Of a DNA stretch of 64,000 bases, positions 6,250 to 22,700 are shown one piece after another. The position numbers and the translations under genes are program-made. Below the pieces are notes generated by a model. That model saw only the letters and a list, made by a program, of their open reading frames with translations. It was not told where the DNA came from and did no database searches. The number at the start of each line of letters is the position of its first letter. Position 1 is the stretch's first letter. The DNA is from Accumulibacter sp. (GTDB lineage: Bacteria; Pseudomonadota; Gammaproteobacteria; Burkholderiales; Rhodocyclaceae). The stretch covers positions 3,746-67,745 of the forward strand of contig NZ_JAMTDX010000099.1 in assembly GCF_023806625.1 (NCBI RefSeq). The letters run 5' to 3'.

Positions 6250-9200
6250 GTGTTCTCGCGCTTCTTCATCGAACGCCCGGTCTTCGCCGCGGTCGTCGCG
6301 ATCATCGTCTCGATCGCCGGCATCGTGTCGATGTTCGTCATCCCGGTCCAGCAATACCCTACGATCACCCCCGTCCAGGTGACCGTCCAGGCCACCTATC
6401 CGGGGGCCGACGCGAAGACGCTCGCCGATTCGGTCGCCGCACCGATCGAGGCGCAGATCAACGGCGTCGACAAGATGCTCTACATGTCGTCGACGAGCTC
6501 GGCGTCGGGTCAGCTCGTTCTGACCGTGTATTTCGCGCTCGACGCCGACCCGGACATCGCCCAGGTGCAGGTCCAGAACCGGGTGAACCTCGCGCTGCCC
6601 CAGTTGCCTTCGGCGGTCACCCAGCAGGGCGTTTCGGTGCAGAAAAAGTCGTCGACGATCATGATGCTGATCGCGGTGACCGGCAAGGGCGACCGCTACA
6701 GCCCCGAGTACGTGGCGAACTACGCGAACGTGTACGTGCTCGACGCGCTGAAGCGGGTACCCGGTGCCGGCCAGGCGCAGATTCTCGGAGTCCCCGACCA
6801 GGCGATGCGCATCTGGATGAACCCCGACCGGATGGCCTCGCTGGGCATCACGACCAGCGACATCGCCAGCGCGATCAACACGCAGAACACCCTCTCCGGC
6901 GCCGGGCAGATTGGCCAGGAGCCGACTGCCGGCGCCGTCGAGCTGAGCTTCCCGGTGGTCACGCAGGGCCCGTTCAGCGACCCCCGGCAGTACGAGCGGA
7001 TCATCCTGCGGGCCAGCCAGGACGGCAGCGCGATCGTCCGCGTCGGCGACGTCGCCCGCGCCGAAGTCGGCCTGCGCCAGTACATCGCCGACACCCGGCT
7101 GAACCGCGAACCGGCGACGCTGATCGCCATCTACCAGCAGCCCGGCGCCAACGGCCTGGTCGTCTCGAAGGCCGTGCGCGACGCGCTCGCCGGAATGCAG
7201 TCGCGCCTTCCGGAAGGACTCGACACGGTGATCGCCCTCGACACCAACGACTTCGTCCGCCTGTCGATCAGGGAAGTGCTGATCACGCTGGTCGAAGCGC
7301 TGCTGCTCGTCGTGCTCGTCGTCTACCTGTTCCTGCAGAGCCTGCGCACGACGCTGATCTGCTCGGTGGCGATCGTCGTCGCCCTCGTCGGGACCCTCGC
7401 CGGGATGCTCGCGCTCGGCTTCTCGATCAACCTGCTGACGCTGTTCGGGCTGATCCTGGCGATCGGCATGGTCGTCGACGACGCGATCGTCGTCGTCGAG
7501 AACGTCGAGCGCAACATGGCTCAGCATCAGCTCTCGCCGCGCGAGGCGGCCCTCCGCACGATGGACGAGATCGGCAGCTCGCTGGTCGCCGTCGTCCTGG
7601 TGATGGCCTCGGTGTTCGTCCCGGCCGCCTTCCTGCCCGGCACGACCGGCCAGCTCTACCGGCAGTTCGCGATCACCATCGTCATTTCGGTGAGCCTCTC
7701 GGGCTTCATCGCGCTGACCCTGACGCCGGCGATGTGCGCGCTGCTCCTGAAGCACACGCCGCCCCCCGAGCGCGGCTTCTTCGCCTGGTTCAACCGGCAG
7801 GTCGAGCGCGTGACGCGCGGCTTCGGGCTCGCCGTCTCGTGGGTCATCCGACGGATGGCCGTCGCCTTCGCGCTGCTCGCCGGGTTCCTCCTGGCCATCT
7901 GGCAGCTTTTCCATGTCCTGCCGACGAGCTTCGTGCCCAACGAGGACCAGGGTTACGCGATGGTCGCGCTGATCATGCCGCAGTCGGCGAGCCTCGACCG
8001 CACGCGCGCCGCGGCCGAGCGCGTCGACCGCCTGCTGGCGGCGATCCCGGGGGTCGACACGCGTTCGATGGTCGCCGGTTACAGCCTGATCGACCAGGGC
8101 TACAAGGCCAACGCGGCGACCTTCTTCGTCACTTTCGGCAAGTTCGACGAGCGCTACGCGTCGGTCGACTCCGCGCGCCTCGAGAACGCCCGGGCGATCC
8201 TGCTGACGCTCTACGAACAGGCCCGCCAGATCGAGGACGCGACCGTCTTGCCGATCGCCCCGCCGGCGATCCCCGGGATCGGAACGACCGGCGGCTTCGA
8301 GTTCTGGATTCAGGACACGGCCGCGGGCGATCCGCTGCGACTCGACGAACTGACGCGTGCCTTCCTCGACAAGGCGCGCGGCCGGCACGAACTGACTGCG
8401 CTGAACAGCACCTTCAACGCCCGGACGCAGCAGCTGCGCGCCGACGTCAACCGTGAGACGGCGACGCTGCTCGGCCTGCAGGTCCAGGACGTCTACAACG
8501 CGATCCAGGCGCAGTTCGGCTCGCTGACCGCCAGCCAGTTCACCCAGTTCAGCCGTGTCTGGTGGGTCATCGTCCAGTCGGACGCGAAGTACCGCCAGCA
8601 GCCCGGCGACCTGACCCGGTTGTATACCCGCAACGGCCAGGGCAGGATGGTGCCTCTTTCGGCAGTGGTCACCACGAGCTGGGCGGCCGGCCCGGACATG
8701 CTGCCGCATTTCAACGGCTTCCCGGCGGCCAAGGTGATCGGCAATCCGGCGCCGGGCTTCAGCTCGGGACAGGCGATTCGGGCGATGGAGGAGGTCGCCA
8801 GCGAGGTTCTCCCGCCGGGCTATGCCTTCGCCTGGTCAGGGCTCGCCTATGAGGAGAAGAAGGCCGGCGGCACTTCGGCGCTCGCCTTCGTCTTCGGATT
8901 GCTGATCGTCTTCCTCGTCCTCGCCGCGCAATACGAGTCGTGGACGCTGCCCGGCGCGGTGATGACCGCGATCCCCTTCGGGGTCTTCGGCGCGCTGCTC
9001 ACCAACTGGGCGCGCGGGCTCGAGAACGACGTCTATTTCCAGATTGGCCTGCTCGTGCTCATCGGCCTCGGCGCGAAGAACGCCGTGCTGCGCGTCTCGG
9101 CAGCCGTCGACTTCCGCCGCCAGGGCAAGTCCATCCTCGAAGCGACCGTGCTCGCCGGCGAGCAACGCCTGCGCCCGATCATCATGACTTCGCTGGCCTT

Positions 9201-9429
9201 CGCCGTCGGCTGTCTGCCGCTGGCTCTGGCGCTCGGTGCCGGGGCCAACGCGCGGCACTCGATCGGCACCGGGATCATCGGCGGGATGATCGGCGAGACG
9301 ACGCTGGCCATGCTCTACGTGCCGCTCTTCTTCTACCTCTTCGACCGCCTCGCCGAGCGACGCGCGCGCGGCGACCAGGCGACGACCAGCGACGCCGGGC
9401 AACCGACCGGCGGCGAGGAGCGTCGATGA
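6250..9429 (+). CDS. RND multidrug efflux permease (AcrB/MexB family)
   Basis: 1059 aa with the canonical N-terminus FSRFFIERPVFA and 12-TM HAE1 architecture. GTG start 11 nt after the adaptor gene. Confidence 0.95.
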   Translation: MFSRFFIERPVFAAVVAIIVSIAGIVSMFVIPVQQYPTITPVQVTVQATYPGADAKTLADSVAAPIEAQINGVDKMLYMSSTSSASGQLVLTVYFALDADPDIAQVQVQNRVNLALPQLPSAVTQQGVSVQKKSSTIMMLIAVTGKGDRYSPEYVANYANVYVLDALKRVPGAGQAQILGVPDQAMRIWMNPDRMASLGITTSDIASAINTQNTLSGAGQIGQEPTAGAVELSFPVVTQGPFSDPRQYERIILRASQDGSAIVRVGDVARAEVGLRQYIADTRLNREPATLIAIYQQPGANGLVVSKAVRDALAGMQSRLPEGLDTVIALDTNDFVRLSIREVLITLVEALLLVVLVVYLFLQSLRTTLICSVAIVVALVGTLAGMLALGFSINLLTLFGLILAIGMVVDDAIVVVENVERNMAQHQLSPREAALRTMDEIGSSLVAVVLVMASVFVPAAFLPGTTGQLYRQFAITIVISVSLSGFIALTLTPAMCALLLKHTPPPERGFFAWFNRQVERVTRGFGLAVSWVIRRMAVAFALLAGFLLAIWQLFHVLPTSFVPNEDQGYAMVALIMPQSASLDRTRAAAERVDRLLAAIPGVDTRSMVAGYSLIDQGYKANAATFFVTFGKFDERYASVDSARLENARAILLTLYEQARQIEDATVLPIAPPAIPGIGTTGGFEFWIQDTAAGDPLRLDELTRAFLDKARGRHELTALNSTFNARTQQLRADVNRETATLLGLQVQDVYNAIQAQFGSLTASQFTQFSRVWWVIVQSDAKYRQQPGDLTRLYTRNGQGRMVPLSAVVTTSWAAGPDMLPHFNGFPAAKVIGNPAPGFSSGQAIRAMEEVASEVLPPGYAFAWSGLAYEEKKAGGTSALAFVFGLLIVFLVLAAQYESWTLPGAVMTAIPFGVFGALLTNWARGLENDVYFQIGLLVLIGLGAKNAVLRVSAAVDFRRQGKSILEATVLAGEQRLRPIIMTSLAFAVGCLPLALALGAGANARHSIGTGIIGGMIGETTLAMLYVPLFFYLFDRLAERRARGDQATTSDAGQPTGGEERR

Positions 9430-10880
9430 TCCGGCTGCTGCTCCCCGCGCTGGTCGCCGTCCTGGCCGGCGGCTGCATGGTCGGCCCCGACTACCACCGG
9501 CCACCGGTGAGGGCGCCGGAGCAGTTTCAGTACATGCCCACCGACGCCGCCGACACCGCCGACACGAGGTGGTGGGAGCAGTTCGGCGATCCGGTGTTCG
9601 ACGCCCTGATCGTCGAGGGGCTGGCGCACAACAGCAACATCGCCATCGCCGCGGCGAACGTCGAGCAGGCGGCCGCCGTACTCACCCAGGTGCGCTCACC
9701 GCTCTTCCCGCAGTTCGGCTACGCGGCCACCGGCGAGAGGCAGAAGTCGGTCGAGCCGGCGCTCGTCCGGCTGCTGCCGCGCGACATCGACCCGACGACG
9801 GCTTACCAGGCGCTGCTCTCGGCGAGCTGGGAAATCGACCTCTGGGGGCGAATCCGCCGCCAGTCCGAGACCGCGCGCGCCGACCTGCTGGCCACCGACG
9901 AGGCGCGGCGCGGGGTGATCCTCTCGGTCGTCGCGTCGATCGCCAGCAGCTACCTGCAGTTGCGCGGGCTCGACGCACAGCTCGTCGTCGCCAAGAAGAC
10001 GCTCGCCGCCTACGTCGAGTCGGTCCGGCTCTTCGAACTGCAGTTCGCTTACGGCCAGGTGTCCAAGATGACCGTCGTCCAGGCGCAATCGCAGTACGAG
10101 ACGGCGGCGGCGCAGATCCCGCTGATCGAGTCGCAGATCGCCCAGAACCAGAACGCGCTGGCCGTGCTGATCGGGCGCGATCCCGGGCCGATCGCCCGCG
10201 GTCGCTCGCTCGACGACCTCGTGCTGCCGAAGGTTCCCGCCGGAGTTCCGTCGGCGCTGCTCGAGCGGCGCCCCGACCTGCTGCAGGCCGAGCAGCAGCT
10301 GATCGCGGCCAACGCGCAGATCGGCGCAGCCAGGGCCCTCTATTTCCCGACGATCTCGCTGACCGGCGCGTACGGCGGAGTCAGCGCCGAACTGTCGAAG
10401 CTGTTCAGCGGCGCGTCGCGGGTGTGGAACTACAGCGGCTCGATCGTCGGACCGATCTTCACCTTCGGCGCGATCAGCGGCCAGGTCGCGCAGGCCGAGG
10501 CAGCGCAGCGAGCGGCGCTGCTCAACTACCAGCTGGCGATCCGCAACGCCTTCGCCGACGTCGACAACGCGCTCGTCGCCAACCAGAAACTCGCCGAGCA
10601 GTACGCCGCGCAGCAGCGTCTGGTCGTCGCGCTGCGCGAGTATTCGCGGCTCGCCCGGCTACAATACGACGGCGGCTACGCGCCGTACTCGACGGTGCTG
10701 CAGGCCGAGCAGACGCTGTTTCCGGCCGAACTCGGCCTCGCGTCGATGCGCAGTTCGCTGTTCGCTTCGGCGGTGAACATCTACAAGGCGATCGGCGGCG
10801 GCTGGGTCGGCGTCGCCGACGCGCTGACCGGAAGCGGCGGAAAGGCTGCCGGCGAAGCAGGACCAACACCCGCGTTCTGA
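9426..10880 (+). CDS. RND efflux outer-membrane factor lipoprotein (OprM/NodT family)
   Basis: ATG overlaps the permease stop (ATGA). Lipobox LAGGC followed by GPDYHRP, and C-terminal NIYKAIGGGW. Confidence 0.92.
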   Translation: MIRLLLPALVAVLAGGCMVGPDYHRPPVRAPEQFQYMPTDAADTADTRWWEQFGDPVFDALIVEGLAHNSNIAIAAANVEQAAAVLTQVRSPLFPQFGYAATGERQKSVEPALVRLLPRDIDPTTAYQALLSASWEIDLWGRIRRQSETARADLLATDEARRGVILSVVASIASSYLQLRGLDAQLVVAKKTLAAYVESVRLFELQFAYGQVSKMTVVQAQSQYETAAAQIPLIESQIAQNQNALAVLIGRDPGPIARGRSLDDLVLPKVPAGVPSALLERRPDLLQAEQQLIAANAQIGAARALYFPTISLTGAYGGVSAELSKLFSGASRVWNYSGSIVGPIFTFGAISGQVAQAEAAQRAALLNYQLAIRNAFADVDNALVANQKLAEQYAAQQRLVVALREYSRLARLQYDGGYAPYSTVLQAEQTLFPAELGLASMRSSLFASAVNIYKAIGGGWVGVADALTGSGGKAAGEAGPTPAF

Positions 10881-10911
10881 ACCCCGGCCGAAGCCGTCAG
10901 GCAACGGCCGC

Positions 10912-11439
10912 TCAGGACTCGCCCACGCTCCGGACACCACTGTGCGGGGTGGCGGTAACGGCGATGTCGACGACCGGAGCGCCGGTCATCTCGAGCAGTT
11001 CGCGCGGCGAGAGCCGGAACACCGCGTGCGGGTGACCGGCGGCCGCCCAGATGGTCTCGTACGCCAGCAGGTCCCGATCGACGAGCACGATCACCTCTCG
11101 GGCGTGGCCGAGCGGACAAACGCCACCGATCGCATAGCCGGTGTGCTCGCGGACGAAACGCGCGTCGGCCTTGCCGAGCGCACCGACCCTTGCAGCCAGC
11201 TTGGTCTCGTCGCCCCGGTTGGCGCCGCTGGCCACGACCATCACCGCACGATCGTCGGACAGCCGCCGGAAGACGATCGACTTGGCGATCTCGGCGACGC
11301 TGCAGCCGAGAGCTGCCGCTGCCTCGGCGGCCGTCCGGCCGGTCGCCGGAAGCAGCACCGGCGATTCGCGGTGACCGATTCGGCGCAGCAGATCGGCGAC
11401 CCGCTGCGCCGCTTCGGGCAATCCGCTGGCCTCGTTCAT
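10912..11439 (-). CDS. ybaK: YbaK/EbsC-family aminoacyl-tRNA deacylase
   Basis: 175 aa. Editing-domain blocks KSIVFR, VMVVASG, YAIGGVCPLGH. Confidence 0.8.
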   Translation of the reverse strand: MNEASGLPEAAQRVADLLRRIGHRESPVLLPATGRTAAEAAAALGCSVAEIAKSIVFRRLSDDRAVMVVASGANRGDETKLAARVGALGKADARFVREHTGYAIGGVCPLGHAREVIVLVDRDLLAYETIWAAAGHPHAVFRLSPRELLEMTGAPVVDIAVTATPHSGVRSVGES

Positions 11440-11496: not shown

Positions 11497-12525
11497 TCAT
11501 TCGGCGAGGGCACCGAGGCCGAGGGTCGCGGTCAGACCCTTGCGCACGAGCTGGACCGCGCGGGAAACGTCGCACGTGGTCAGCATTTCGCGCGTCTCGA
11601 TCTCGTCGAGACCGGTGTTCAGCACCGCCGGCAGGTTGCCGCGCGCCTTATCGACGAGCGCGAACAGGGCGTCGAGCGCCTCGGCGCTCGCCCGCCCCCC
11701 TGCCGGCAGCGCAAAGCGCGTCGCCAGCCCGATCAGTCTGTCGAGACCCGGATTCCCCGCACGAAGCGCGTCGAGCACGAGCGCCTGCGGGCGATCCGGT
11801 CCCCGGGCGAGCAATGCCCCGGCGAGCACTTCGGCTGCGCCGCCGAACCCGCCGAGGACGTACAGTGGCCGCCGTCTTTCGAGGGCGACGAGTGCTTCCT
11901 CGAAAATCCCCGGCAGGAAGCCGTGGAAACCGGTCGTCTTGCCGCCCAGCACGACGCGGGCCATGATCGGCGGAACGAACTCGGGGCTCGCCAGGCCTGG
12001 CAGATCGATCGTCATTCCGTCCATCGCCAGCCGGCGCATCGCGCTGAGCGTCAATGCGCTGTTGAACACGGCCCGGTCGGAGCCGTTGCCGGCTTCGCCG
12101 TCTGGAACCTGGTCGGGCGCACCGATCCCGGCATCCTGCTGCGTGACGCGGACGATCCGGCAGCAGTTGATCCACTGCGCCTCGATCCGCGGGGTGACCT
12201 CGAGGTACTCGGGCCACGGACAGTGACTGACCAGCCGCCCGATGCTCAGGTTCGTATCCGGACCGCCGAGGCTGTTGTCCTCCTGTTCGGCGCTGATCAG
12301 GCGCAGCAGGTCGAAGGTGAAGTTGTCCTCGCTTTCCTTCCAGCGTCCACCGTAGGCAAGGCTCGCCGCCTGCCTGAGCAGCGGCCGCGCGAGGCGGACG
12401 AGCAATTCGCGCAGATGTTCGAGACCGAGCCCACGGGCGAGCAGGTTCTCGCGCTGGTAGGAGATGGACAGGTCGATGACCGTGTTGGCGATCATCCGCG
12501 ACCGGTACTTGCTACTGCTCGTCAT
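11497..12525 (-). CDS. Stand-alone SLOG (SMF/DprA-LOG-like) Rossmann-fold protein, putative nucleotide-signal sensor or nucleotide-processing enzyme
   Basis: 342 aa. Motifs DLSISY...SLAYGG, VVLGGKTTGFHGFLPGIFEE (compare the LOG motif PGGxGTxEE) and YVLGGFGGAAE. ATG overlaps the upstream TIR gene stop (ATGA, 12522-12525). No other recognisable domain. Confidence 0.65.
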   Translation of the reverse strand: MTSSSKYRSRMIANTVIDLSISYQRENLLARGLGLEHLRELLVRLARPLLRQAASLAYGGRWKESEDNFTFDLLRLISAEQEDNSLGGPDTNLSIGRLVSHCPWPEYLEVTPRIEAQWINCCRIVRVTQQDAGIGAPDQVPDGEAGNGSDRAVFNSALTLSAMRRLAMDGMTIDLPGLASPEFVPPIMARVVLGGKTTGFHGFLPGIFEEALVALERRRPLYVLGGFGGAAEVLAGALLARGPDRPQALVLDALRAGNPGLDRLIGLATRFALPAGGRASAEALDALFALVDKARGNLPAVLNTGLDEIETREMLTTCDVSRAVQLVRKGLTATLGLGALAE

Positions 12526-13784
12526 GACGTCGTCGCCTCGAAACTGTGGAAGGCCAGCCGCGGGAAGAACTCGTCGAGAATGTCGAGTTCGAGACCGGAG
12601 AGGCCGCGGCCCGGATAATGGACGCGCAGGTCCTCCTTCGCCTCGCGAACGCGCGGAATGTGCAGCAGCGTCGTCGGGTCAGGCAACCAGTTGACGACGA
12701 TCACGTCCGGCGCACCCGACAGCGTCCGCCCGACCGCGCTGTGAAACGCGGCGAGCAGCGCGTCGCGGAGCAGCGTCGTGACCACCTGCTCTTCCTGGTC
12801 GGGCACCTCTTCGGCCCAGCGGATCAGCGGCGCGTTGCCGAGCTCGGGGATACCCGAGGTCCGGCCTCCGCCCTCGAGTGCGTCGACGACGACGACCGGG
12901 TTGAGCCGCCAGCGCTCACCGAGCCCCGGCGGAGTCCCGCTCTCCTGCAGCGGCCGGCGGAAGAGCGCAAGCTCGCGCCGGCACCACGGGCGGCTGGCGT
13001 AGCGTGCGCTGCGCACGGCGATCAGCGCGGCGGTCTGCTCGCTTTCGACGTTGCTCTGCAGCACGCGACCGAACGCCGATCCGAAGGGGATGTCGTTCTC
13101 GTCGAAGAAGGCGCCGAGCTGCGTCTGGCTGTAGATGTAGTCGCGAATGCGTTTGGCCGGCACGGTGCCATCGACCTTCGCGTGACTCAGGAAGATGACG
13201 ATTTTCGGTTGCCCGGGCTCGCCGGCCGGGTTCTGTGCCGCTGGCGAGGACGCCCGCCCGAGCATCAGCCGGCACAGCGCCTCGGTGAGCTGCTTGAGCA
13301 GCGAACGGACGACGGTCTCGGTCGCCGGCCCGCTCCCCGGCTGTTCGTCGGCCGGCAAAGGCAGGCCGGCCGGCCGCAGGAAGTTCAGCGCACGCAGCGC
13401 TTCGGGCGCGTTGTAAGCGGTCGAATCGAGGGCCACCGGCAGGAACTTGCGGCTCGTCGCCGGCTGGCCCGCCGAGCCCAGCTGAGCGATCCAGAAACGC
13501 CAGCTGGCATCGGCGATCATCTGTTCGTCGATGAGCAGCAGCACGATCTGCAGGTTGGCCAGCCGCGATCCGCTCGCCGCCGGCTGGCCAGGCCGGAACT
13601 CGCCGGGCAACGGCGACGGCAGCCCCCCGGGTGGCGCGTCGGGCGCCGGCAGGCTGCGGTAGAAGACCTGCGGTCCGAGACCGTTGCCCGGCCGCAGCCA
13701 GCCGTGGATACGCCGCGCGAGAACTTCTCCGAGCGCGCAGCGGGGGTGCCACAGGACGTAGATTTCGGGAATCGGGTTGTCCAT
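12522..13784 (-). CDS. TIR-domain protein (predicted NAD+-consuming), with an N-terminal degenerate TIR-like domain and a C-terminal domain of unknown function
   Basis: ATG at 13784 is preceded by GAGGAG; the ORF track begins at a GTG at 13805. The central block KIVIFLSHAKVDG..FFDENDIPFG..ALIAVRSARYASRPWCRRELALF fits the bacterial TIR pattern, including the conserved Glu of WCxxE (codon 12972-12974). Confidence 0.7.
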   Translation of the reverse strand: MDNPIPEIYVLWHPRCALGEVLARRIHGWLRPGNGLGPQVFYRSLPAPDAPPGGLPSPLPGEFRPGQPAASGSRLANLQIVLLLIDEQMIADASWRFWIAQLGSAGQPATSRKFLPVALDSTAYNAPEALRALNFLRPAGLPLPADEQPGSGPATETVVRSLLKQLTEALCRLMLGRASSPAAQNPAGEPGQPKIVIFLSHAKVDGTVPAKRIRDYIYSQTQLGAFFDENDIPFGSAFGRVLQSNVESEQTAALIAVRSARYASRPWCRRELALFRRPLQESGTPPGLGERWRLNPVVVVDALEGGGRTSGIPELGNAPLIRWAEEVPDQEEQVVTTLLRDALLAAFHSAVGRTLSGAPDVIVVNWLPDPTTLLHIPRVREAKEDLRVHYPGRGLSGLELDILDEFFPRLAFHSFEATTS

Positions 13785-13914
13785 GCTCTCCTCGGCCCAG
13801 GTCACGATCGGTCCCTGCGGCGGCCACGGACGCGCTGAGCACCGCGCGCCACGATCTTTTCAGTGTAGCGCAGCTCGACCGCGTCCGGCCGATGCGCAGC
13901 CTGAGGCGACGGCA

Positions 13915-15999
13915 TCAGCCGGACGATCGGTCGCTCGGCAGGACCGCTTCGCCGGACAACCCGCTGGCCCGTAGGACGCGCCTGGCGACAGTGTCACGGA
14001 CGAGTTGCAGACCGCCGGCGCTGACTACGCTGAGGAAAGAACGTGCGCGGGTAATCCCGGTATACAGCAGTTCGCGGGTCAGCACCGGGTTCGCCGTCTC
14101 CGGAAGGACGAGCGCCACGTGGCCGAACTCGGAGCCCTGCGCCTTGTGCACGGTCAGCGCATAGGCCGTCTCGACGGCCTGGAGACGGACCGGGGCCACC
14201 CAGCGGACCGGGCGACCGGCGTCTCCGCTGGCGAAAGCGACGCGCAGCGTGCCCCGATCGGGACCCGCGGGGATCGCCAGCGTGATACCGATGTCGCCGT
14301 TCATCAGCCCGAGCCCGTAGTCATTGCGCGTGACCAGCACCGGACGGCCCGGATGCCAGCCGTCGCTCTCGGGAATGAGGCTTGCTGCGCAGAGCACGCG
14401 AGCGATCTGCCGGTTCAGCCGCTCGACGCCCCACGGCCCGCGGCGCAGCGCCGAGAGTACCTGGAATGTCGCGTAGGCGCTGAGCACTTCGTTGGCCCAG
14501 CCATCGACCTCGGCCTTCCCGGCGTCCGGCGCCGGTTGTCGCCGGTGCATCGTTTCGAGGTAGTGGCGATAACCTTGCCTCTGCGGCGTCGCCGCCGCGC
14601 CGGGCCGCTCGCCGGCGCAGCCGTCGACGGCCAACCGGTCCAGCGCGGTCTGCTCGCCGGCGGTCGGCAGAACGAACGCCAGGTCGGCGTGACGCCCTTC
14701 GAGGATCGCCACGACGCGCTCGGGGTCGCCGTCATTGACCGCTTCGGCGAGCTGACCGATGCCGCTCTCCGCAGCGAAGCGGTGGCTGCGACGCAGCATG
14801 ACGATCGTCTGGTCGAGCGCCTGGCCCTGGGGATCGACCCACTCCGGCCCGATTGGCTGACCGGTCGCCGCGCCGATCCACTCTGCGGTTTCCGGGAGGT
14901 AATGCGCTTCGGCCGCGCCGCGACAGAGTTCGCCGAGGACCGCGCCGGCTTCGACCGACGCCAGCTGGTCCTTGTCGCCGAGCAACACGAGCCGCGCAGC
15001 AGGCGGCAACGCGGCGAAAACCGCGGCCATCAGCTCGAGGTCGACCATCGACGCCTCGTCGATGACCAGCACATCGACGGCGAGGGGATGGCCCGAATGG
15101 TGACGGAAGCGCCGCGTCTCGGGACGACTGCCGAGCAGGCGATGGACCGTCGTCGCGGTCGCCGGGATCAGCCCGCGCAGCGCTTCACCCTGCGCCAGGC
15201 CGCCCAGCGGCAGCCTGGCCAGCGCTCCGGCGATCGCCTCGTTGAGCCGCGCCGCCGCCTTGCCGGTCGGCGCGGCGAGGCGGATGCGCAGCGCACCGGT
15301 CTGCTGGTCGGCAGCCGATCCGCCGAGCGCAAGTTCCTGGAGCAGCGCCAGCAGGCGAACGACCGTCGTCGTCTTGCCGGTCCCCGGGCCGCCGGTGATG
15401 ATCGCGAAGGCGTTGCGCGCAGCCAGCGCGCAGGCGACCTTTTGCCAGTCGGGACCGGGCAACCCGGCCGCTGGCGCCGGGAAAAGGCCGTCGAGTGCAG
15501 CGCGCAACGCCACGGCCGGCGCTGCCGTGGCGCCCAGGCGCTGGGCGATCGCGCGGCGCACGTCCTGCTCGCACTGCCAGTAGCGGCGCAGATAGAGGCG
15601 TCCTCCGGCAAGAACCAGCGGCGTGTTGCCGGCGCCGCGCGCGACCAGCGCGGGTCGGTCGAGCGCGGCGAGCCACTCGGCGAGGCTCAGCCCGGCGAGC
15701 ACTTCGGCAGGCACCGGCAACCGGCCGCCGGGCGGCGCCGAATCCGCCGCCTCCGGGGGGAGCGCGAGAACCCGCTCGGGTTCGGCAAGCGTCGCCGCGA
15801 GGTCGAGACACACGTGGCCGCGCCCGAGCTGATGGCTGGCCAACGCCGCGCCGAGGAGCAGCAGCGGCGGTGCTTCGGGAACCTCGCGCCAGAGGAAGTC
15901 GGCGAAGGCGACGTCAAGCGGCCGCAGCCATTCGCTCGCCGACCAGCGTCCAAGCAGCGCCCGGAGGCGCCGCCGGCTGTCGATCAGCCGGCCGTTCAC
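13915..15999 (-). CDS. recD: Exodeoxyribonuclease V alpha subunit RecD
   Basis: GTG start overlaps the recB stop (GTGA at 15996-15999). Walker A ITGGPGTGKTT, SF1 helicase motifs (VLVIDEASMVD, LVLLGDKDQLASV, TVHKAQGSEF). The upstream 183 codons of the ORF are overlap noise. Confidence 0.93.
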   Translation of the reverse strand: MNGRLIDSRRRLRALLGRWSASEWLRPLDVAFADFLWREVPEAPPLLLLGAALASHQLGRGHVCLDLAATLAEPERVLALPPEAADSAPPGGRLPVPAEVLAGLSLAEWLAALDRPALVARGAGNTPLVLAGGRLYLRRYWQCEQDVRRAIAQRLGATAAPAVALRAALDGLFPAPAAGLPGPDWQKVACALAARNAFAIITGGPGTGKTTTVVRLLALLQELALGGSAADQQTGALRIRLAAPTGKAAARLNEAIAGALARLPLGGLAQGEALRGLIPATATTVHRLLGSRPETRRFRHHSGHPLAVDVLVIDEASMVDLELMAAVFAALPPAARLVLLGDKDQLASVEAGAVLGELCRGAAEAHYLPETAEWIGAATGQPIGPEWVDPQGQALDQTIVMLRRSHRFAAESGIGQLAEAVNDGDPERVVAILEGRHADLAFVLPTAGEQTALDRLAVDGCAGERPGAAATPQRQGYRHYLETMHRRQPAPDAGKAEVDGWANEVLSAYATFQVLSALRRGPWGVERLNRQIARVLCAASLIPESDGWHPGRPVLVTRNDYGLGLMNGDIGITLAIPAGPDRGTLRVAFASGDAGRPVRWVAPVRLQAVETAYALTVHKAQGSEFGHVALVLPETANPVLTRELLYTGITRARSFLSVVSAGGLQLVRDTVARRVLRASGLSGEAVLPSDRSSG

Positions 16000-18900
16000 C
16001 CGCTCTGCTCCGCGCTCTGGCCGGAGAACAGCTGATCGAGCGCTTCGATCAGCTGGCGCGGCGGGCGCTCGAAGTGGATTCCCTGGCCGGCAGCGAAGCT
16101 GCCGCGCAGGAAAAGGTACACCGCTCCGCCGACGTGCCGGTCGTAGTCGTAGTCCGGCAGCCGCAGCTTGAGCAGGCGGTGCAGGGCGACGAGATAGAGT
16201 GCGTACTGCAGGTCGTAGCGCGCGTGGAGGATCGCGCCGCGCATCGCCTCTGGGGTGTAGGCGGCGTCTTCGGCACCGAGCCAGTTCGACTTCCAGTCGG
16301 CGACGTAGTAGAGACCGCAATGCTCGAAGACCAGGTCGATGAATCCCCTGAGCAGACCGTCGAGCCGCCGTGCAGGCAGTCTCGGTCTCGGCGCTCCGGC
16401 GAGTGTGTGCCGGCAAACGAGTTCGTCGATGCGCCCGGTGTCCACCGCGCGGGTGGTCAGCGCGAACTCCATTTCGGCAGCCGAAGCGCCGAGTTCGGCG
16501 AGCCGCACTGCGTGCGCCGGCCGACCGGGCTCGGGCGGCAAACGCCACGGCGTGCTCAGGAAATGCTCGAGCCAGACCGCGAGCGGCTCGATCCAGCGAT
16601 CCCAGCCGTGCGCACGGCAGTTGCGCACAATCCGCTCACGGAGCGGCGCCGGATCGTGCCACGAGAAGGCGTGGCCGGCCGCCGCTTCGAGCAGCCCGTG
16701 AAGAAAGGTTCCCGCCTCGGCACCGCGGGGGAAGTCGTGCAGCGCTCCGACGAGCAGCGGGCGGGTCGGCCGCCCTGCTCCGCGCGGCTCGCCGGAGGGC
16801 GGCAGGGCGAGCTCGCCAGGAACCACCCCCGCGAGCGTCTCCTGCACCAGAGCGGCGACCGGCGTCTCGGCGGGAGTCGCCGGGAAGTCGTTGACGCTGT
16901 CACCCGCGACGCGCAGCGACGAGTAGCTGGCGATGCCCCAGGCCTGGCGCACGGCGCGCCGCGCAATCCGTGCCTGACCCGACCCGGAAGCCGGCGCCAG
17001 CGGTCCGGAGAAACGCTCGTCGCCGGCCTCTGGCGCCTGTGCGACGACGATCTGCGGCAGACCGCCGCGCAGCTCTTTGAGCCGGCGCGGCAGGTCGGAC
17101 GCTGCGATTTCTTCGCCAGCGCCGAGCAGGTAGCCCGCTGCGCTGTGCGCCAGGTCGGCGATTGGCGCAAAACCGACCCAGGTGGCGTAGCGCGCGCGGG
17201 TCAGCGCAACGTATAGCTTGCGCATATCCTCGGCGAGGCGCTCCCGGTCAGCACCCTCGACGAGCGACGGATCGGCGACCAGCGCGAGCTGCAGCTCGCC
17301 CGCGTCGTCGTGCCACCTCAGCGGCAGGTCCTTCGCGCCGTCGATCCGCCGGCAGCTGCTGGCGAAGGGCACGAAGACCAGTGGATATTCGAGTCCCTTG
17401 GACTTGTGCACGGTGACCACCTGGACGAGTCCTTCGTCGCTTTCGAGACGCAACTGGCGCACGTCGCCACCAACGCCGGCCGAAGCATCGTGCCTCTGCT
17501 CGGCCAGGTGGCGGATCAGCGCGTGCTCGCCTTCGAGCAGGACACTCGCCTGCTGCAGCAGCTCGGCGAGGTGCAACAGATTGGTCAGCACCCGCTCCCC
17601 ACTCGTCGCCCCGCGCGCCGGGTCGCTGTCATCGAGCAGACGCAGCGGCACTGCGAAATCGTTGAGCAGGCGACGCAGCATCGGCAGGACACCCTGGCCG
17701 CGCCAGCACTCGCGATACGCGCGGAACTGCTCGACTCGCGCTTCCCAGGTCCGATCGTCGTCTTCGAGCACGTCGAGCTCGCGCCAGTCCACGGCGAGCA
17801 GGCGGCTCGCCAACGCCCGGCGCAGACAGCGTGGGTCGTCGGGATCGGCACAGGCAGCGAGCCAGTTCTGCAGCTCGGCGGCTTCGCCGCTGGCAAAGAC
17901 CGACTCGCGTTCGGACAGATAGACGCTGCGCACGCCGCGTTGGCCCAGTGCCTTGCGGATCGTGTCGGCCTCGACTCGCGCGTTGACCAGCACGGCCACG
18001 TCGGCTGGGGTCAGCGGCCGCATCCGTCCGCTGCCCGTAAAGCCCGCCTGCCCTGCGGCACCGAGCCTGAGCAAGCGAACGATCTCGCTCGCGCAGGCTG
18101 CGGCGATCTGCTCGCGGGACGCTTCCTTGCCGAGTTCTCCGCCGTCGGCGCCAGGCGGCAGCCACCAGGCGGTCAGCGCGGGCAGCTCGACGCCTTCCGC
18201 GACGAGCACGTCGTCGCGACCTCGGGCAACGGCAGCGGTGAACGGCAACGGGTTGCCGCCCGCCCCCCTGAACAGGAACGCACCAGACCCGTCCCGGCGC
18301 TGTTCGGCGAAAGCGAAGCAGCGGTTGGTTGCCTCGACCATCGCGCGCGTCGAACGGTGGTTGGTGCTCAGCGTGTGCAGACGGCCGGCGCAGGCCTTCC
18401 GCGCGCGCAGGTAGGTGTGGATGTCGGCGCCGCGAAACGCGTAGATTGCCTGTTTCGGGTCGCCGATCAGCACCAGCGCGGTCGCCGGGTCGTTGCGCTC
18501 GACACGGTAGATGGCGTCGAAGATGCGGTACTGCAGCGGGTCGGTGTCCTGAAACTCGTCGATCAGTGCAATCGGGAACTGCGCGCGAATCACCGCTGCG
18601 AGCCGCTCACCGCTCGGGCCGTGCAGCGCCGCGTCGAGTCGGGTCAGCAGGTCCTGGAAACCCATCCGCGCGCGGCGCAGCTGCTCGGCAGCCAGACGCT
18701 CGGCAACCCAGCGGGCCGCGTGACGCAGCACTTCGGCGCGCGCGTCGGGCAGCTCGGCAAGCGCGGCCTGGAGACCGGAGATCGCCTGCCAGCCCGGATG
18801 CGCGGGCGGACAGCCATTCCTCCAGAGTTCGGCGATCCCCGGCGAAGCGAGCCGCTCCCAGCCCTTGCCGAGGTTCGGCGAAACGCTCCCGGCGTCGTCC

Positions 18901-19769
18901 CGCCAGGTGCGCAGAGCGGCGAGCCAGTTCCGGTAATGGCGCGCCTGCAGCCGGCGCCCGTCGACCTGCCGGCGCGCGACGGCCTCGTCGAGCAGTTGCT
19001 CGAGCTCGTCGACCCAGTCGATCCACGGCGCCTTGAGCTCGCCCAGGCGCTGTTCGCGCGCCGTGCGCGCGCGCGGCACACTGAGCGCGGGCGACTCCGC
19101 TGCGCAGAGCGAGCCGGCATGATCGACGAGCCCGCCGAGCGCCTTGCGCAGCCCGTCGGGATCCGCCCACCACGGCATCAGCTCGCCGAGCGACTGGGCG
19201 TCGAGGGGAACGACGAAGCTGCGCCAGTAGTCTCGGACGACTTCTCCGAGCAGATCTTCCTGATCGGCTTCGAGCGTCTGAACGAACAGGCTGTTGCTGT
19301 CGAAGGCGTGCTCGCGGAGCATCCGTTGGCACCAGCCGTGGATCGTCCACACCGCGGCTTCGTCCATCGCCTCGGCGGCGAGCTGCAGCCGGCGCGCGCA
19401 GGCCGGCCATTGATCGGCTGCGTACTGCCCGCGCAGATCGTCGAGCAGGTCTTCGCCGGCTCCGGCGGCCGGTCGATCGTCGGCGATCTCGCGGAAGCGC
19501 GTCGCCGCTTCCGCGAGCCGGCGGCGAATCCGCTCGCGCAGCTCTTCGGTCGCCGCCTCGGTGAAGGTGACGACGAGAATCTCGCGCGGCGCGAGCGGTC
19601 GCCAGCCGTTCGCTGCGCCGTGCCCGAGAACCAGACGCAGGTACAGCGCGGCGATCGCGAAGGTCTTGCCGGTACCGGCGCCCGCCTCGATCAGCTGGCT
19701 GCCGCGCAGCGGAAAGCGCAGCAGGTCGAGTTCGACCGGCCCGTCGCCAGCCAGCGGCACGCCGGTCAC
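15996..19769 (-). CDS. recB: Exodeoxyribonuclease V beta subunit RecB (helicase-nuclease)
   Basis: GTG start overlaps the recC stop (GTGA at 19766-19769). Motifs IEAGAGTGKTF, UvrD-like helicase motifs, and a C-terminal PD-(D/E)xK nuclease block (GFIDLVFEH..YYVADWKSN). Confidence 0.95.
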   Translation of the reverse strand: MTGVPLAGDGPVELDLLRFPLRGSQLIEAGAGTGKTFAIAALYLRLVLGHGAANGWRPLAPREILVVTFTEAATEELRERIRRRLAEAATRFREIADDRPAAGAGEDLLDDLRGQYAADQWPACARRLQLAAEAMDEAAVWTIHGWCQRMLREHAFDSNSLFVQTLEADQEDLLGEVVRDYWRSFVVPLDAQSLGELMPWWADPDGLRKALGGLVDHAGSLCAAESPALSVPRARTAREQRLGELKAPWIDWVDELEQLLDEAVARRQVDGRRLQARHYRNWLAALRTWRDDAGSVSPNLGKGWERLASPGIAELWRNGCPPAHPGWQAISGLQAALAELPDARAEVLRHAARWVAERLAAEQLRRARMGFQDLLTRLDAALHGPSGERLAAVIRAQFPIALIDEFQDTDPLQYRIFDAIYRVERNDPATALVLIGDPKQAIYAFRGADIHTYLRARKACAGRLHTLSTNHRSTRAMVEATNRCFAFAEQRRDGSGAFLFRGAGGNPLPFTAAVARGRDDVLVAEGVELPALTAWWLPPGADGGELGKEASREQIAAACASEIVRLLRLGAAGQAGFTGSGRMRPLTPADVAVLVNARVEADTIRKALGQRGVRSVYLSERESVFASGEAAELQNWLAACADPDDPRCLRRALASRLLAVDWRELDVLEDDDRTWEARVEQFRAYRECWRGQGVLPMLRRLLNDFAVPLRLLDDSDPARGATSGERVLTNLLHLAELLQQASVLLEGEHALIRHLAEQRHDASAGVGGDVRQLRLESDEGLVQVVTVHKSKGLEYPLVFVPFASSCRRIDGAKDLPLRWHDDAGELQLALVADPSLVEGADRERLAEDMRKLYVALTRARYATWVGFAPIADLAHSAAGYLLGAGEEIAASDLPRRLKELRGGLPQIVVAQAPEAGDERFSGPLAPASGSGQARIARRAVRQAWGIASYSSLRVAGDSVNDFPATPAETPVAALVQETLAGVVPGELALPPSGEPRGAGRPTRPLLVGALHDFPRGAEAGTFLHGLLEAAAGHAFSWHDPAPLRERIVRNCRAHGWDRWIEPLAVWLEHFLSTPWRLPPEPGRPAHAVRLAELGASAAEMEFALTTRAVDTGRIDELVCRHTLAGAPRPRLPARRLDGLLRGFIDLVFEHCGLYYVADWKSNWLGAEDAAYTPEAMRGAILHARYDLQYALYLVALHRLLKLRLPDYDYDRHVGGAVYLFLRGSFAAGQGIHFERPPRQLIEALDQLFSGQSAEQSG

Positions 19770-22700
19770 GGATCCTTTCCGGCGTCGACCGGCACGCCGC
19801 CTGCTTCTGTCCCGCCGTGCACCGCCGAGTGAATCGGCCGAAGAAGGCGGTCGACGAACTCGACGAACTCGCCGCCGGCGACGAGCGCCGCGAAATCGGG
19901 ATAGACCAGCGCCAGGGCCGGATCGTTGCCGACTTCGCCAGCGACGCCAAAGCCCCCCTCGTACGCGCTGCGCGCGGCTTCGCGGCCCTCCCTGAGCCAG
20001 GCGAAGCCGGTCTTCACGGCCAGCGGCAGCGGTCGGCACATGCCCTGCTGCCAGGCGTGCAACAGGTCGGTCAACTGCGCCGCCGCCTGCTCGGCCGGCA
20101 ACGGCGGCAGCTCGACGTCGCCGACCTTGCCGACGAGCATCGTGGTCACACGGCCGGCGCAGAGCTGGAGCGCGAGGTGCCTGACCCAGTGAGCGACGAC
20201 GACCTCGCCCCGGTACCGGCGCTTGCGGATCAGGTCTCTGCTTTCGAGCTCGACCCGGCCGAGCCGCCCGGCGGCGTCGCCAAGCAGCCCGCCGAGCCGG
20301 TCGACCACTTCGACGCGCTGGCCGGCGAGGTCGGCGGCGAAGCGGAACTCTCCGGCCCGGTCGACCTCTTGCGGCCAGCGAGCGAGCGCCGCGCCGTAAC
20401 GGGCGAACAGGTCGTCGATCGGCGCGACGAGCTCGCTCGCCAGGACGTCGGCGAAGGCGCCGGCGGGCAGGTCGCCGCGCCGGCGGAATGCACCGAGCCG
20501 GGCTTCGCGGGCCTCAGCCGGATCGAGTCCGGCGGCGAGTGCGCCGGCCTGAGCGCGGATCAGTTCGTCCTGGAGCGTCCATCGGGTCAGGCCATCAAGG
20601 CCAAACGGCTCGACGTCCTCGCTCGCCGGATCCTCGCCCACGAAGGAAACGCCGAGCCGTTGCTCGAAGAAGGCGCGTACCGGCCGGCTGAGGAATCGCC
20701 CGAGATCGTCGAGCGACAATGGCTCGTCGCGCAGCGCAACGGGCAACGGTTCGTACCGGGCCGCTCGCCGGTGAGCACTGCCGGCGGCCTGCGGCCGCCA
20801 CTCATGCGCATAGGAGAACAACACCGAGTTCTCGGGATCGCGCGGAAAGTAGTCGGCGCTGAACGCCTGCAGACGATGCTCGGTGGTCAGGCCGGCGAGC
20901 AGGGCCTCGCCGCTGCCCGGACCCGGGTATCCTGAGCGTGTCCAGCCCGCGGCCAGGTGATCGCGGAGCTGGCCGACGAGCACCGACGGTGGCCGCGGCC
21001 GGTTGTCGTGCACACTGCGCCCGATCCACGAGACGTGCAGCCGCTCGCGGGCCGAGAGGAGCGCTTCGAGGAACAGATAGCGGTCGTCCTCGCGCCGCGA
21101 ACGGTCGCCCGGACGATGCTCGTCGGCCATCAGGTCGAAGTCCATCGCCGTACGGCTGCGCGGGTAGTCGCCGTCGTTCATTCCGAGCAGGCAGACGTAA
21201 CGGAAGGGAATCGCACGCATCGGCATCAGCGTCGCGAAGGTGATCGCTCCGCCGAGAAAGCTCTGCGTCATCCCGCCGTCGTCGAGGCTGGACAGCCAGT
21301 TCTCGGCGACCACCGAGAGCGGCAGGGGCTCTTCGACAGCGGCCTCGGCGCTGGCTGCCTGCCAGGCCTGCAGCGCCTCATCGAGTTGCAGCAGGGTCAG
21401 CGCGTCGCGGCCTTCGGCGGCGACGAAGAAGTCGGCGATCAGCCTGCGCAGGCGAACACACCAGACGTCGACGGTGGCCGGCTCGCGCAGCGCTCGCCAG
21501 TTGTCGTCGAGGCGCTCGACGAGTTGCACCAGCGTGCCGAGCAGCGCCGCCTCGAGCCCGCCGATCCCGTCGCACGGTTCGATCTGCTGCCAGGCGCCGC
21601 CGCTTCCGCCGACCGCGTAGCCGAGGAGCATCCGCCGCAGGCCGAACAGCCAGGTGTTGCGCGCCGGTTCGTCGCCCACCGCCGGCAGACCGAGGCCTGC
21701 GCGCTGCTCGTCGTGCAGGCCCCAGCGAACGTTGGCCGCGCGGATCCACCGCCTCAGGCGCGGCAGGTCGTTTGCGCCGATGGCGAAACGCCGCTGCAGC
21801 GCAGGCACTTCCAGGAGGTCGAGCAGGTCGCTGACCGCGAGCCGGGACTGCGGCAGGTCGAGCAGCTTTTGCAGCGCGTTGAGCAGCGGCTCGACCTGCC
21901 GCCGCCCGCGGTCGGCGAGGGCAAACGGCAGGTGGCGCGGGTCGCCGGTGTCGACGAGTCCGAACACCGCCTGCACGTGCGGTGCGTAGCGGTCGATGTC
22001 CGGCACCATGACGATGACCTCGTGCGGGGCGAGGCCGGGGTCGTCGTTGAACGCGGCGAGTAGCTGATCGTGAAGGATTTCGACTTCGCGCTGCGCGCTG
22101 TGCGCGACATGGAAGCGGATCGAGACGTCGCGCTCGACGTCGACCGGCGGCCAGCATTCGCGGCTCTCATGAACCGGGCGCAGCTCGAGTATGTCGTCCT
22201 GGAGCTGCTCGAGCAGCGTGCGCCCGCCCGAGGGCTCGAAGAGATCGACGCGCTGCCCGAACGCCGCGAGCTGCGGCAAAAGGCGCGCTTGCGCCAGATC
22301 GCTGTCGTGCTCGTCGAGCAGCCCGATGAAGTCGCGTCCCTGCTTGCCCCAGGCGGCGAGCAGCGGGTTCGCGTGCAGGTAAAGCTGCTCTTCGGGTATC
22401 TCGCGGGGCACCCGCCGTCGCTGGCGCACGTCCCGCGGGCGCAGCAGGTCACGAGCGGCGACGATGTCGGCCCAGTAATGGCGGCACGGGTTGGGCACGC
22501 AGACCAGCACCTGCGTCCAGCGGGCGATCTCCGCGAGCACCTCGAGCGACTGCCCGGGCAGACTGGAGATGCCGAAGACGATCAGCCTTCGCGGCAGGCC
22601 GGCCGGTCTTTCGCCCGACGGCCAGCTGCGCGCGCAGCGCACGAAGGCCTCATGAACGGCAGCCCGGCCGCGGCTCGCCGCCTCGTCGCGCGGGCCGTGA

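Follow-up and report, generated by a model that had tools for sequence, protein, structure and literature searches.

The 64-kb stretch of Accumulibacter sp. DNA considered here (contig NZ_JAMTDX010000099.1; the whole of it is called the window below) carries on its minus strand two translationally coupled genes, the first encoding a three-domain TIR protein, termed TIR3, and the second a stand-alone SLOG protein. Judged by comparison with their relatives, the two products are the split form of a protein existing fused elsewhere. A search of 1.84 billion representative proteins with a SLOG profile afforded 1,991 family clusters (about 2,000, defined at 50% identity), and 38 of the best 150 are fusions, that is, single chains of 680-880 amino acids (aa) in which a complete TIR3 profile is followed by a complete SLOG profile; therefore, the window pair is read as the split form of one TIR-SLOG protein. 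A scan using one genome per species gave 42 loci, and in about 36 of them the gene immediately 5' of the SLOG gene encodes a TIR3 homologue of full length, also in Bacteroidota and Treponema with 24-30% identity. Wherever the genes are split, a 4-nucleotide (nt) NTGA overlap is almost always kept (33 of 34 loci, several phyla). The fused relatives are strong evidence that the two products likely work as a physical complex.

Regarding function, the chances are about even that the pair constitutes a SLOG-gated TIR NADase, i.e. two halves of one machine cleaving nicotinamide adenine dinucleotide (NAD+). By analogy, the module type is probably the one serving as effector in type IX Thoeris, and the same probably holds for type III; for the window pair a complex acting as effector is the likely reading. 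A previous interpretation of the letters alone, the sequence-only reading, had described a Thoeris-like module with no recognisable effector. This framing has to be reversed, as the pair is itself most likely a split TIR-SLOG module of effector type, and what the 64 kb lack is a sensor TIR; the missing element in the window is thus most likely the sensor rather than the effector.

The gene pair and its products

The two-gene cassette spans 2.3 kb. Its features, with the basis of each assignment, are given in window coordinates; open reading frame is abbreviated ORF and AlphaFold2 AF2, while A1 and A2 denote homologue alignments.

12522-13784, minus strand: TIR3 gene, three-domain TIR protein of 420 aa (ORF list, homologue alignment A2, Pfam, AF2)
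11497-12525, minus strand: stand-alone SLOG gene, 342 aa, ATG start (ORF list, Pfam PF18163, AF2, Foldseek)
13788-13793, minus strand: Shine-Dalgarno-like GAGGAG, 3 bases 5' of the TIR3 ATG (read from the sequence)
12522-12525, minus strand: ATGA stop/start overlap coupling the TIR3 and SLOG genes (read from the sequence)
13257-13784, minus strand: N-terminal alpha/beta domain of TIR3, aa 1-176, no family assignment (AF2 secondary structure)
12882-13202, minus strand: catalytic-type TIR domain, aa 195-301, with FLSHAK, DENDIxxGS and WCRRE (Pfam TIR_2, Foldseek)
12972-12974, minus strand: codon of E271, the putative catalytic glutamate of WCRRE (alignments)
12525-12827, minus strand: C-terminal alpha/beta domain of TIR3, aa 320-420, no family assignment, highly conserved (AF2)
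11896-11955, minus strand: SLOG nucleotide-loop motif VVLGGKTTGFHGFLPGIFEE, aa 191-210 (alignment A1)
11830-11853, minus strand: second glycine-rich SLOG loop GGFGGAAE, aa 225-232 (alignment A1)

The longest ORF over the TIR3 gene starts with a GTG at 13805 (12522-13805, minus strand) and would give 427 aa. The homologue starts in alignment A2 fall on the ATG at 13784, and for this reason 420 aa is considered the right length of the TIR protein. Within the ATGA, the SLOG start codon occupies 12525-12523 and the TIR3 stop codon TGA 12524-12522; the two genes are translationally coupled. In these points, the overlap of two minus-strand genes and the 420 aa counted from the ATG behind GAGGAG, sequence and alignment agree with the sequence-only reading. 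Compared with L056, a locus from a related population in which the pair is likewise flanked by recD and ybaK, the ratio of nonsynonymous to synonymous substitution rates (dN/dS) is 0.06 for TIR3 and 0.20 for SLOG. The bare window pair is not decaying and is under purifying selection.

In the TIR protein, Pfam TIR_2 (PF13676) matches aa 197-282 with 36.1 bits, above its cut-off of 28. TIR_2 and TIR are the only Pfam matches of the protein, the ThsB-type family PF08937 not being among them. The AF2 model, with a predicted local distance difference test (pLDDT) score of 84.8, displays three alpha/beta domains. A Foldseek search at the level of the TIR domain returned RPS4, MyD88, SPARTA and B. 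cereus TIR structures with probabilities of 0.96-0.99, and one with the full-length protein generic flavodoxin-like matches only. Hence, the assignment to the TIR fold made from the letters is borne out, and every peptide motif quoted for it (KIVIFLSHAKVDG, FFDENDIPFG and ALIAVRSARYASRPWCRRELALF) is present in the translation. The same holds for the proposal that the Glu of WCRRE aligns with the catalytic Glu of TIR NADases: in an alignment of 103 TIR domains that contains validated Thoeris TIRs, ThsBs included, 102 have Glu in the E271 column, and E271 is invariant across the 37 homologues of A2. The window TIR is a putative NADase, with E271 as its catalytic residue.

Neither of the flanking domains has a family detectable with Pfam or hhalign. 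Invariant positions in A2 are W12, H13 and WLRPGxGxGPxV in the N-terminal domain, and the blocks NWLPDP and PGRGLSGLELD in the C-terminal one. In the model, the strand/helix pattern of the N-terminal domain might resemble a TIR domain without the catalytic Glu. That the terminal domains are duplicated TIRs was rejected, hhalign against the protein's own TIR domain being negative, and a degenerate tandem TIR is a tentative impression.

The 342-aa protein matches Pfam PF18163 (LD_cluster2, SLOG cluster2) with 119.3 bits (E 2.8e-34, cut-off 25.3), an annotation carried by all of its SLOG homologues. Its AF2 model (pLDDT 89.4) consists of a Rossmann-like core (aa ~16-240) and a C-terminal helical bundle (aa ~250-335). 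The quoted motifs DLSISY, SLAYGG, VVLGGKTTGFHGFLPGIFEE and YVLGGFGGAAE all occur in the translation. In alignment A1, G194, G195, G202, F203, P205, G206, E209 and E210 of the nucleotide loop are invariant, as are G225, G226, F227, G228, G229 and E232 of the second loop. The top PDB matches of the model in Foldseek are structures of TRPM2 with 8-Br-cADPR or with ADP-ribose (ADPR) (6puu, 6pur; E ~1e-4, probability 1.0), followed by BcThsA with 3'cADPR, an isomer of cyclic ADPR (8bto, probability 0.98), and 6lhx (probability 0.91). The SLOG assignment of the sequence-only reading holds, and the fold as modelled appears closest to the SLOG domains binding ADPR or cADPR. A sequence search of the PDB with the SLOG profile returned nothing at E<=10, so that the link to TRPM2 and ThsA is by fold comparison only. 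At E<=1, Pfam gave no match of the SLOG protein to a LOG family, to SIR2 or to STALD, the 342 aa being filled by LD_cluster2. LOG enzymes are characterised by the motif PGGxGTxxE; the window protein carries the shorter PGIFEE instead, which has two residues less.

Family spread and kinship with Thoeris systems

Full-length relatives of both proteins number in the hundreds, with 55-80% identity. The close loci belong to Gamma- and Alphaproteobacteria, Verrucomicrobiota, Binatia, Myxococcota and Acidobacteriota, and the distant ones (24-32% identity) to Bacteroidota, Treponema, Planctomycetota and Izemoplasmatales. The TIR-SLOG family is clearly spread horizontally and patchily over many phyla. 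In a Verrucomicrobiaceae locus (L011:8691-11017), the GC content at third codon positions (GC3) of the pair is 0.53-0.60 compared with ~0.80 for its neighbours, which indicates a recent horizontal acquisition, unlike the ameliorated window copy; a similar but weaker contrast is seen in L007:8742-11020. PHROGs and a tblastn search of phage genomes gave no match to either protein, and the pair is not phage-borne.

Further fused copies were found at L006:13260-15362 and on a plasmid of Gloeothece. The latter (L050, Gloeothece citriformis PCC 7424 plasmid pP742404, 3702-5771) is the sole plasmid match in PLSDB; its fused TIR-SLOG protein has 689 aa, matches LD_cluster2 with 372 bits and is preceded by a small TIR gene and a gene of the chitin-deacetylase family. 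Two loci carry two module copies a few kb apart. In L006, a close copy (8727-11023) accompanies the fused one, which is ~25% identical to the window pair. In L013, a close SLOG gene (10001-11020) accompanies a fused copy (13571-15883), likewise ~25% identical; the close SLOG gene has no adjacent TIR3 gene, and a gene for a patatin-like protein with the ND domain described below follows it directly.

Among validated defence systems, the nearest counterparts are found in Thoeris. A preprint of December 2025 defines Thoeris types V-XI (Yirmiya et al., bioRxiv 10.64898/2025.12.03.692087), type IX consisting of a ThsB TIR and an effector, ThsJ, annotated as 'TIR and SLOG' (Table S2 therein). The type IX system of B. 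cereus VD021 protects B. subtilis (bioRxiv 10.64898/2025.12.03.692087). Its locus (L052) was retrieved through the ThsB sequence, and ThsJ (L052:6877-8748) was found to be a protein of 623 aa matching TIR_2, LD_cluster3 (69 bits) and LD_cluster2 (53 bits). It shares the domain order of the window pair, namely an N-terminal region, a TIR domain (SH.K/R.DG, W...E) and a SLOG domain matching PF18163. In contrast to the window pair, ThsJ is one chain, its SLOG domain scores better as LD_cluster3 and it has no long helical tail; furthermore, it always stands beside a ThsB TIR, whereas the window has no ThsB, and overall sequence similarity is marginal. The SLOG cores are 38% identical over 78 aa (E 7e-9, hhalign probability 93.6%), the aligned stretch comprising the GGK..PGI.EE..GG core in the region of VVLGGKTTGFHGFLPGIFEE. 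Between the TIR domains the match is marginal (probability 24%), with LFLSHRRIDGE in ThsJ and IFLSHAKVDGT in the window protein.

The second counterpart is type III Thoeris, which is reported to defend against phage (van den Berg 2024, as cited in bioRxiv 10.64898/2025.12.03.692087). Type III (P. aeruginosa L0872) is judged here by the NCBIfam models NF058526 (ThcB4) and NF058525 (ThcA) and by citing papers. Like the window pair it is apparently split: ThcB4 (375 positions) has its TIR domain in the middle, and ThcA (184 positions) is a stand-alone SLOG. It differs in having three further TIR genes, compared with one TIR ORF in the window, and its ThcA is roughly half as large as the window SLOG protein. 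ThsJ matches both models, ThcB4 with 68.9 bits over residues 37-285 and ThcA with 84.2 bits over residues 433-591, and by these matches it looks like a fusion of ThcB4 and ThcA; hence, both split and fused forms occur among systems reported to defend, and the real type III effector may be the ThcB4-ThcA pair. As far as the cited accounts go, a TIR gene with a stand-alone SLOG gene seems to have precedent in a system reported to defend, always together with further ThsB-type TIRs; such additional TIRs were present in the tests of type III and type IX alike.

In type I Thoeris, the SLOG domain of ThsA receives a cADPR isomer made by a TIR and switches on an NADase, much as proposed for the window pair. 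The ThsA NADase, however, is a SIR2 domain and its SLOG belongs to another family (STALD), while in the window the NADase would be the TIR on a separate chain. In TIR-STING of the cyclic-oligonucleotide-based antiphage signalling system (CBASS) and TIR-SAVED of type III CRISPR, a nucleotide-binding domain drives oligomerisation and thereby activates the TIR NADase; their sensors, STING and SAVED, are unrelated to SLOG, and the ligands are cyclic oligonucleotides. Among known structures, the SLOG model is matched best by the N-terminal MHR1/2 domain of TRPM2, a SLOG-like ADPR-binding domain, but TRPM2 is a eukaryotic ion channel with no sequence-level match, and the template-modelling scores (TM-scores) are low (0.3-0.4).

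As to whether the pair is already a catalogued system, a point the sequence-only reading had referred to PADLOC, neither protein is matched at E<=1 in PADLOC-DB v2.0.0, a library of 2023 that precedes Thoeris types III-XI, and scores stay far below the type III cut-offs. A plasmid search with the type IX ThsB gave relatives beside Macro or SIR2 effectors and none beside TIR-SLOG. The claim that the two-gene form is functionally uncharacterised is accordingly to be divided: an apparently split type III has been reported to defend, at least as cited, whereas for the window subfamily the claim holds within the literature searched. The pair is thus not categorically new, since defence has been reported both for a TIR-SLOG fusion (type IX) and for the apparently split arrangement of type III. 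The SLOG-cluster2 subfamily of the window protein, on the other hand, is separate and no characterisation of it was found in that literature; the window pair is an uncharacterised, unusually conserved subfamily in minimal configuration.

Genomic company of the pair

At related loci the pair is frequently accompanied by further TIR genes; of 32 close loci, about 20 have such genes at a distance of no more than 10 kb. Seven loci carry small TIR genes just upstream of the pair, and TIR-nSTAND1-FGE-sulfatase, TIR-WD40, TIR-iSTAND and ThsB_TIR genes also occur. Proteins of the TIR-nSTAND1-FGE-sulfatase type, which has a lectin fold, adjoin the pair in about 12 loci, e.g. L001:9091-16441 (the same as L008), with TIR/STAND/FGE-sulfatase genes also in L006, L007, L015, L020, L024, L026-L029, L032 and L036. 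In L001, a diversity-generating retroelement (bAvd and reverse transcriptase) lies among the TIR-STAND-FGE-sulfatase genes, a context which suggests that hypervariable NLR-like sensors feed the TIR-SLOG module.

A second recurrent companion is a domain without annotation, about 115 aa long and here called ND (motif EL.TRITTQPLP...AL.SL..F...R...LN..RP...WH), which has no Pfam or PHROG match and is found next to the pair at about 24 of 34 loci. It forms the N-terminus of a patatin-like membrane (transmembrane, TM) protein of ~840 aa in 13 loci, for example L004:3815-6343 (minus strand); the others are L003, L009, L013, L014, L016, L019, L020, L021, L030, L031, L035 and L043. Stand-alone ND genes occur in about 12 loci, L012:3199-3594 and L025:8342-8734 included, and in a single case ND is fused to SLOG (L044:7253-10594). 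Kinship of ND with the SLOG tail or the TIR protein was tested and found negative. A recurrent ORF cluster without Pfam match in eight loci, initially taken as a new gene, turned out to be an antisense reading of the ND-patatin gene.

In another kind of neighbourhood, TIR-SLOG pairs occur together with MazG and MazG_C, a protein with a 5-hmdU-DNA-kinase helical domain, Nmad2 and two to three ThsB_TIR genes (L042:4338-10852). Similar MazG/Nmad2 neighbourhoods are L046, L039, L045, L014 and L021. The hosts are Flavobacterium, Chitinophaga, Izemoplasmatales, Dechloromonas and Piscinibacter, the pairs being distant or close ones, and in Flavobacterium all genes of the neighbourhood lie on one strand. 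Here, genes of the nucleotide-modification type accompany a Thoeris-like unit.

The window itself, which matches contig JAMTDW010000086.1 of GCA_023806595.1, is poorer. Upstream of the pair and on the same strand lies recC-recB-recD (13915-23308), separated from it by 130 nt (13785-13914); downstream follows a tRNA-editing gene of the YbaK type and, beyond it, an RND efflux operon in divergent orientation. No integrase, transposase or other mobile-element gene flanks the pair. GC content is flat at 0.65-0.72, and the GC3 of the pair (0.85-0.87) lies within that of its neighbours (0.84-0.93). Both points had been anticipated from the letters, and a recent island in the window genome was rejected: there is no GC or GC3 signature, and the copy is fully ameliorated. 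A home-built TIR profile detected no TIR-containing ORF in the 64 kb apart from the TIR3 gene, and neither an ND gene nor a patatin-like homologue was found there. Promoter and terminator scans around the pair gave no sites and are uninformative at 70% GC. The recD/ybaK context is shared with the L056 population, and adjacency to recBCD occurs in no other locus of the family. The gap between recD and the pair shows no terminator-like site in this weak scan; the pair may be co-transcribed with recBCD or have a guard role for it.

Proposed mechanism, alternatives and meaning

In the SLOG-gated model, the TIR3 and SLOG proteins would form a stoichiometric complex, the SLOG subunit of which would bind a nucleotide derived from ADPR, for instance an isomer of cyclic ADPR. 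Binding of this ligand would cause assembly, probably oligomerisation as in the analogous cases of ThsA, TIR-STING and TIR-SAVED, enabling the TIR domains to cleave NAD+ via E271, and the ensuing depletion of NAD+ would arrest growth of the infected cell. At most related loci, neighbouring sensor-type TIRs (small ThsB-like TIRs, TIR-STAND-lectin and TIR-WD40 proteins) would provide the ligand. In the window genome, the signal would have to come from unlinked genes, or the unit might trigger itself, with its own TIR product being read by its own SLOG. The sequence-only reading had offered two alternatives, a TIR effector with SLOG as modulator and an enzymatic SLOG. Because of the fused relatives and the annotation of ThsJ as effector, the former is the better one, while the latter is kept as a rival.

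Several observations weigh against this gating model. With no signal-making TIR in the 64-kb window, its proposed input is missing. Identities of 55-70% across phyla are unusually high for defence genes, and about ten other loci carry the bare pair among housekeeping genes. By sequence, ThsJ, ThcA and ThcB4 are only distantly related to the window pair: the TIR3 profile does not recover ThsJ; the best defence-family match of the window TIR, ThcB4 (NF058526), reaches 17.2 bits over the TIR core only, compared with a cut-off of 220; and the window SLOG matches nothing in NCBIfam at E<=1 (the cut-off of ThcA, NF058525, is 110). Even for the validated relative ThsJ, ligand gating is unproven, since type IX ThsB makes 3'cADPR and this compound did not trigger effector toxicity (bioRxiv 10.64898/2025.12.03.692087). 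Moreover, given its ND-patatin neighbours, the TIR-SLOG unit could be the signal generator in full systems, and the invariant EE dyad of the SLOG alignment is compatible with catalysis.

Other explanations divide the labour differently. A self-contained immune or stress unit, in which TIR3 senses via its two extra conserved domains and makes an ADPR-derived nucleotide that its own SLOG reads, with feed-forward assembly and depletion of NAD+, is a possible though unlikely solution. It is similarly doubtful, and slightly more so, that the pair forms a two-enzyme pathway, in which the TIR would cleave NAD+ to an ADPR-type product and a LOG-like N-glycosidase SLOG would convert this into a signal or toxin, or degrade it for reset. 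Such a role would be in line with the fold shared by SLOG and LOG proteins and with GF.PG..EE, whose invariant EE dyad resembles the LOG motif, and a required processing step would fit the failure of 3'cADPR to activate the type IX effector. For some SLOG clades, cleavage of 1'-ribosyl N-glycosidic bonds of ADPR derivatives has been predicted (Aravind and colleagues, PMC9503650). Yet the SLOG protein has no LOG-family match in Pfam at E<=1, its motif is two residues shorter, and its nearest structures, TRPM2 and ThsA, are ligand-binding, non-catalytic SLOGs.

That TIR-SLOG is merely the sensor and signal generator for a separate effector, often the ND-patatin-like membrane protein, with the window copy using an unlinked effector or being a remnant, is rather improbable in our view. 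About 24 of 34 loci have ND next to the pair and 13 loci ND-patatin, which directly follows the SLOG gene in L013 and L019, and the ND-SLOG fusion of L044 points in the same direction; 'SLOG Patatin' is also a predicted Thoeris effector class (bioRxiv 10.64898/2025.12.03.692087, Table S2). The window, however, has no ND or patatin homologue and yet its pair is under strong purifying selection, at about ten loci the pair stands by itself between housekeeping genes, and in validated type IX the TIR-SLOG protein is the sole non-ThsB component. An addiction pair similar to toxin-antitoxin systems, the TIR being an NADase toxin kept inactive by the co-translated SLOG, would account for a tightly coupled, horizontally scattered cassette (compare the GC3 contrast of L011) which inserts between housekeeping genes and has an intact catalytic Glu. 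We consider it a poor candidate: frequent stable fusions are unlike a labile antitoxin, conservation is very high, the window copy is fully ameliorated, and immune-type sensor genes consistently co-occur. Least credible is a non-defence, lineage-specific role, e.g. in monitoring RecBCD or the state of DNA damage. The position of the pair 130 nt behind recD on the same strand, without a terminator-like site detected, and the conservation of this context in the L056 population would agree with it, whereas no other family locus lies beside recBCD and the negative terminator scan counts for little in DNA of 70% GC.

Should the self-contained unit prove true, a Thoeris-type circuit would exist without a separate sensor TIR or effector, and the extra TIR, ND-patatin and STAND-lectin genes would be optional add-ons to an ancestral core. 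Irrespective of this, the Thoeris-like logic of the sequence-only reading was broadly right. The mechanism of TIR-SLOG effectors (types III and IX) is unsolved, and the large family offers natural split and fused versions of them as well as minimal stand-alone ones under purifying selection. Hence, it is well suited to asking how a SLOG controls a TIR enzyme, which ligand is involved, and whether such a module can function without a dedicated sensor. In addition, a further branch of effectors, outside current defence catalogues, is suggested by the recurrent, unannotated ND domain and by its fusion to a patatin-like protein.

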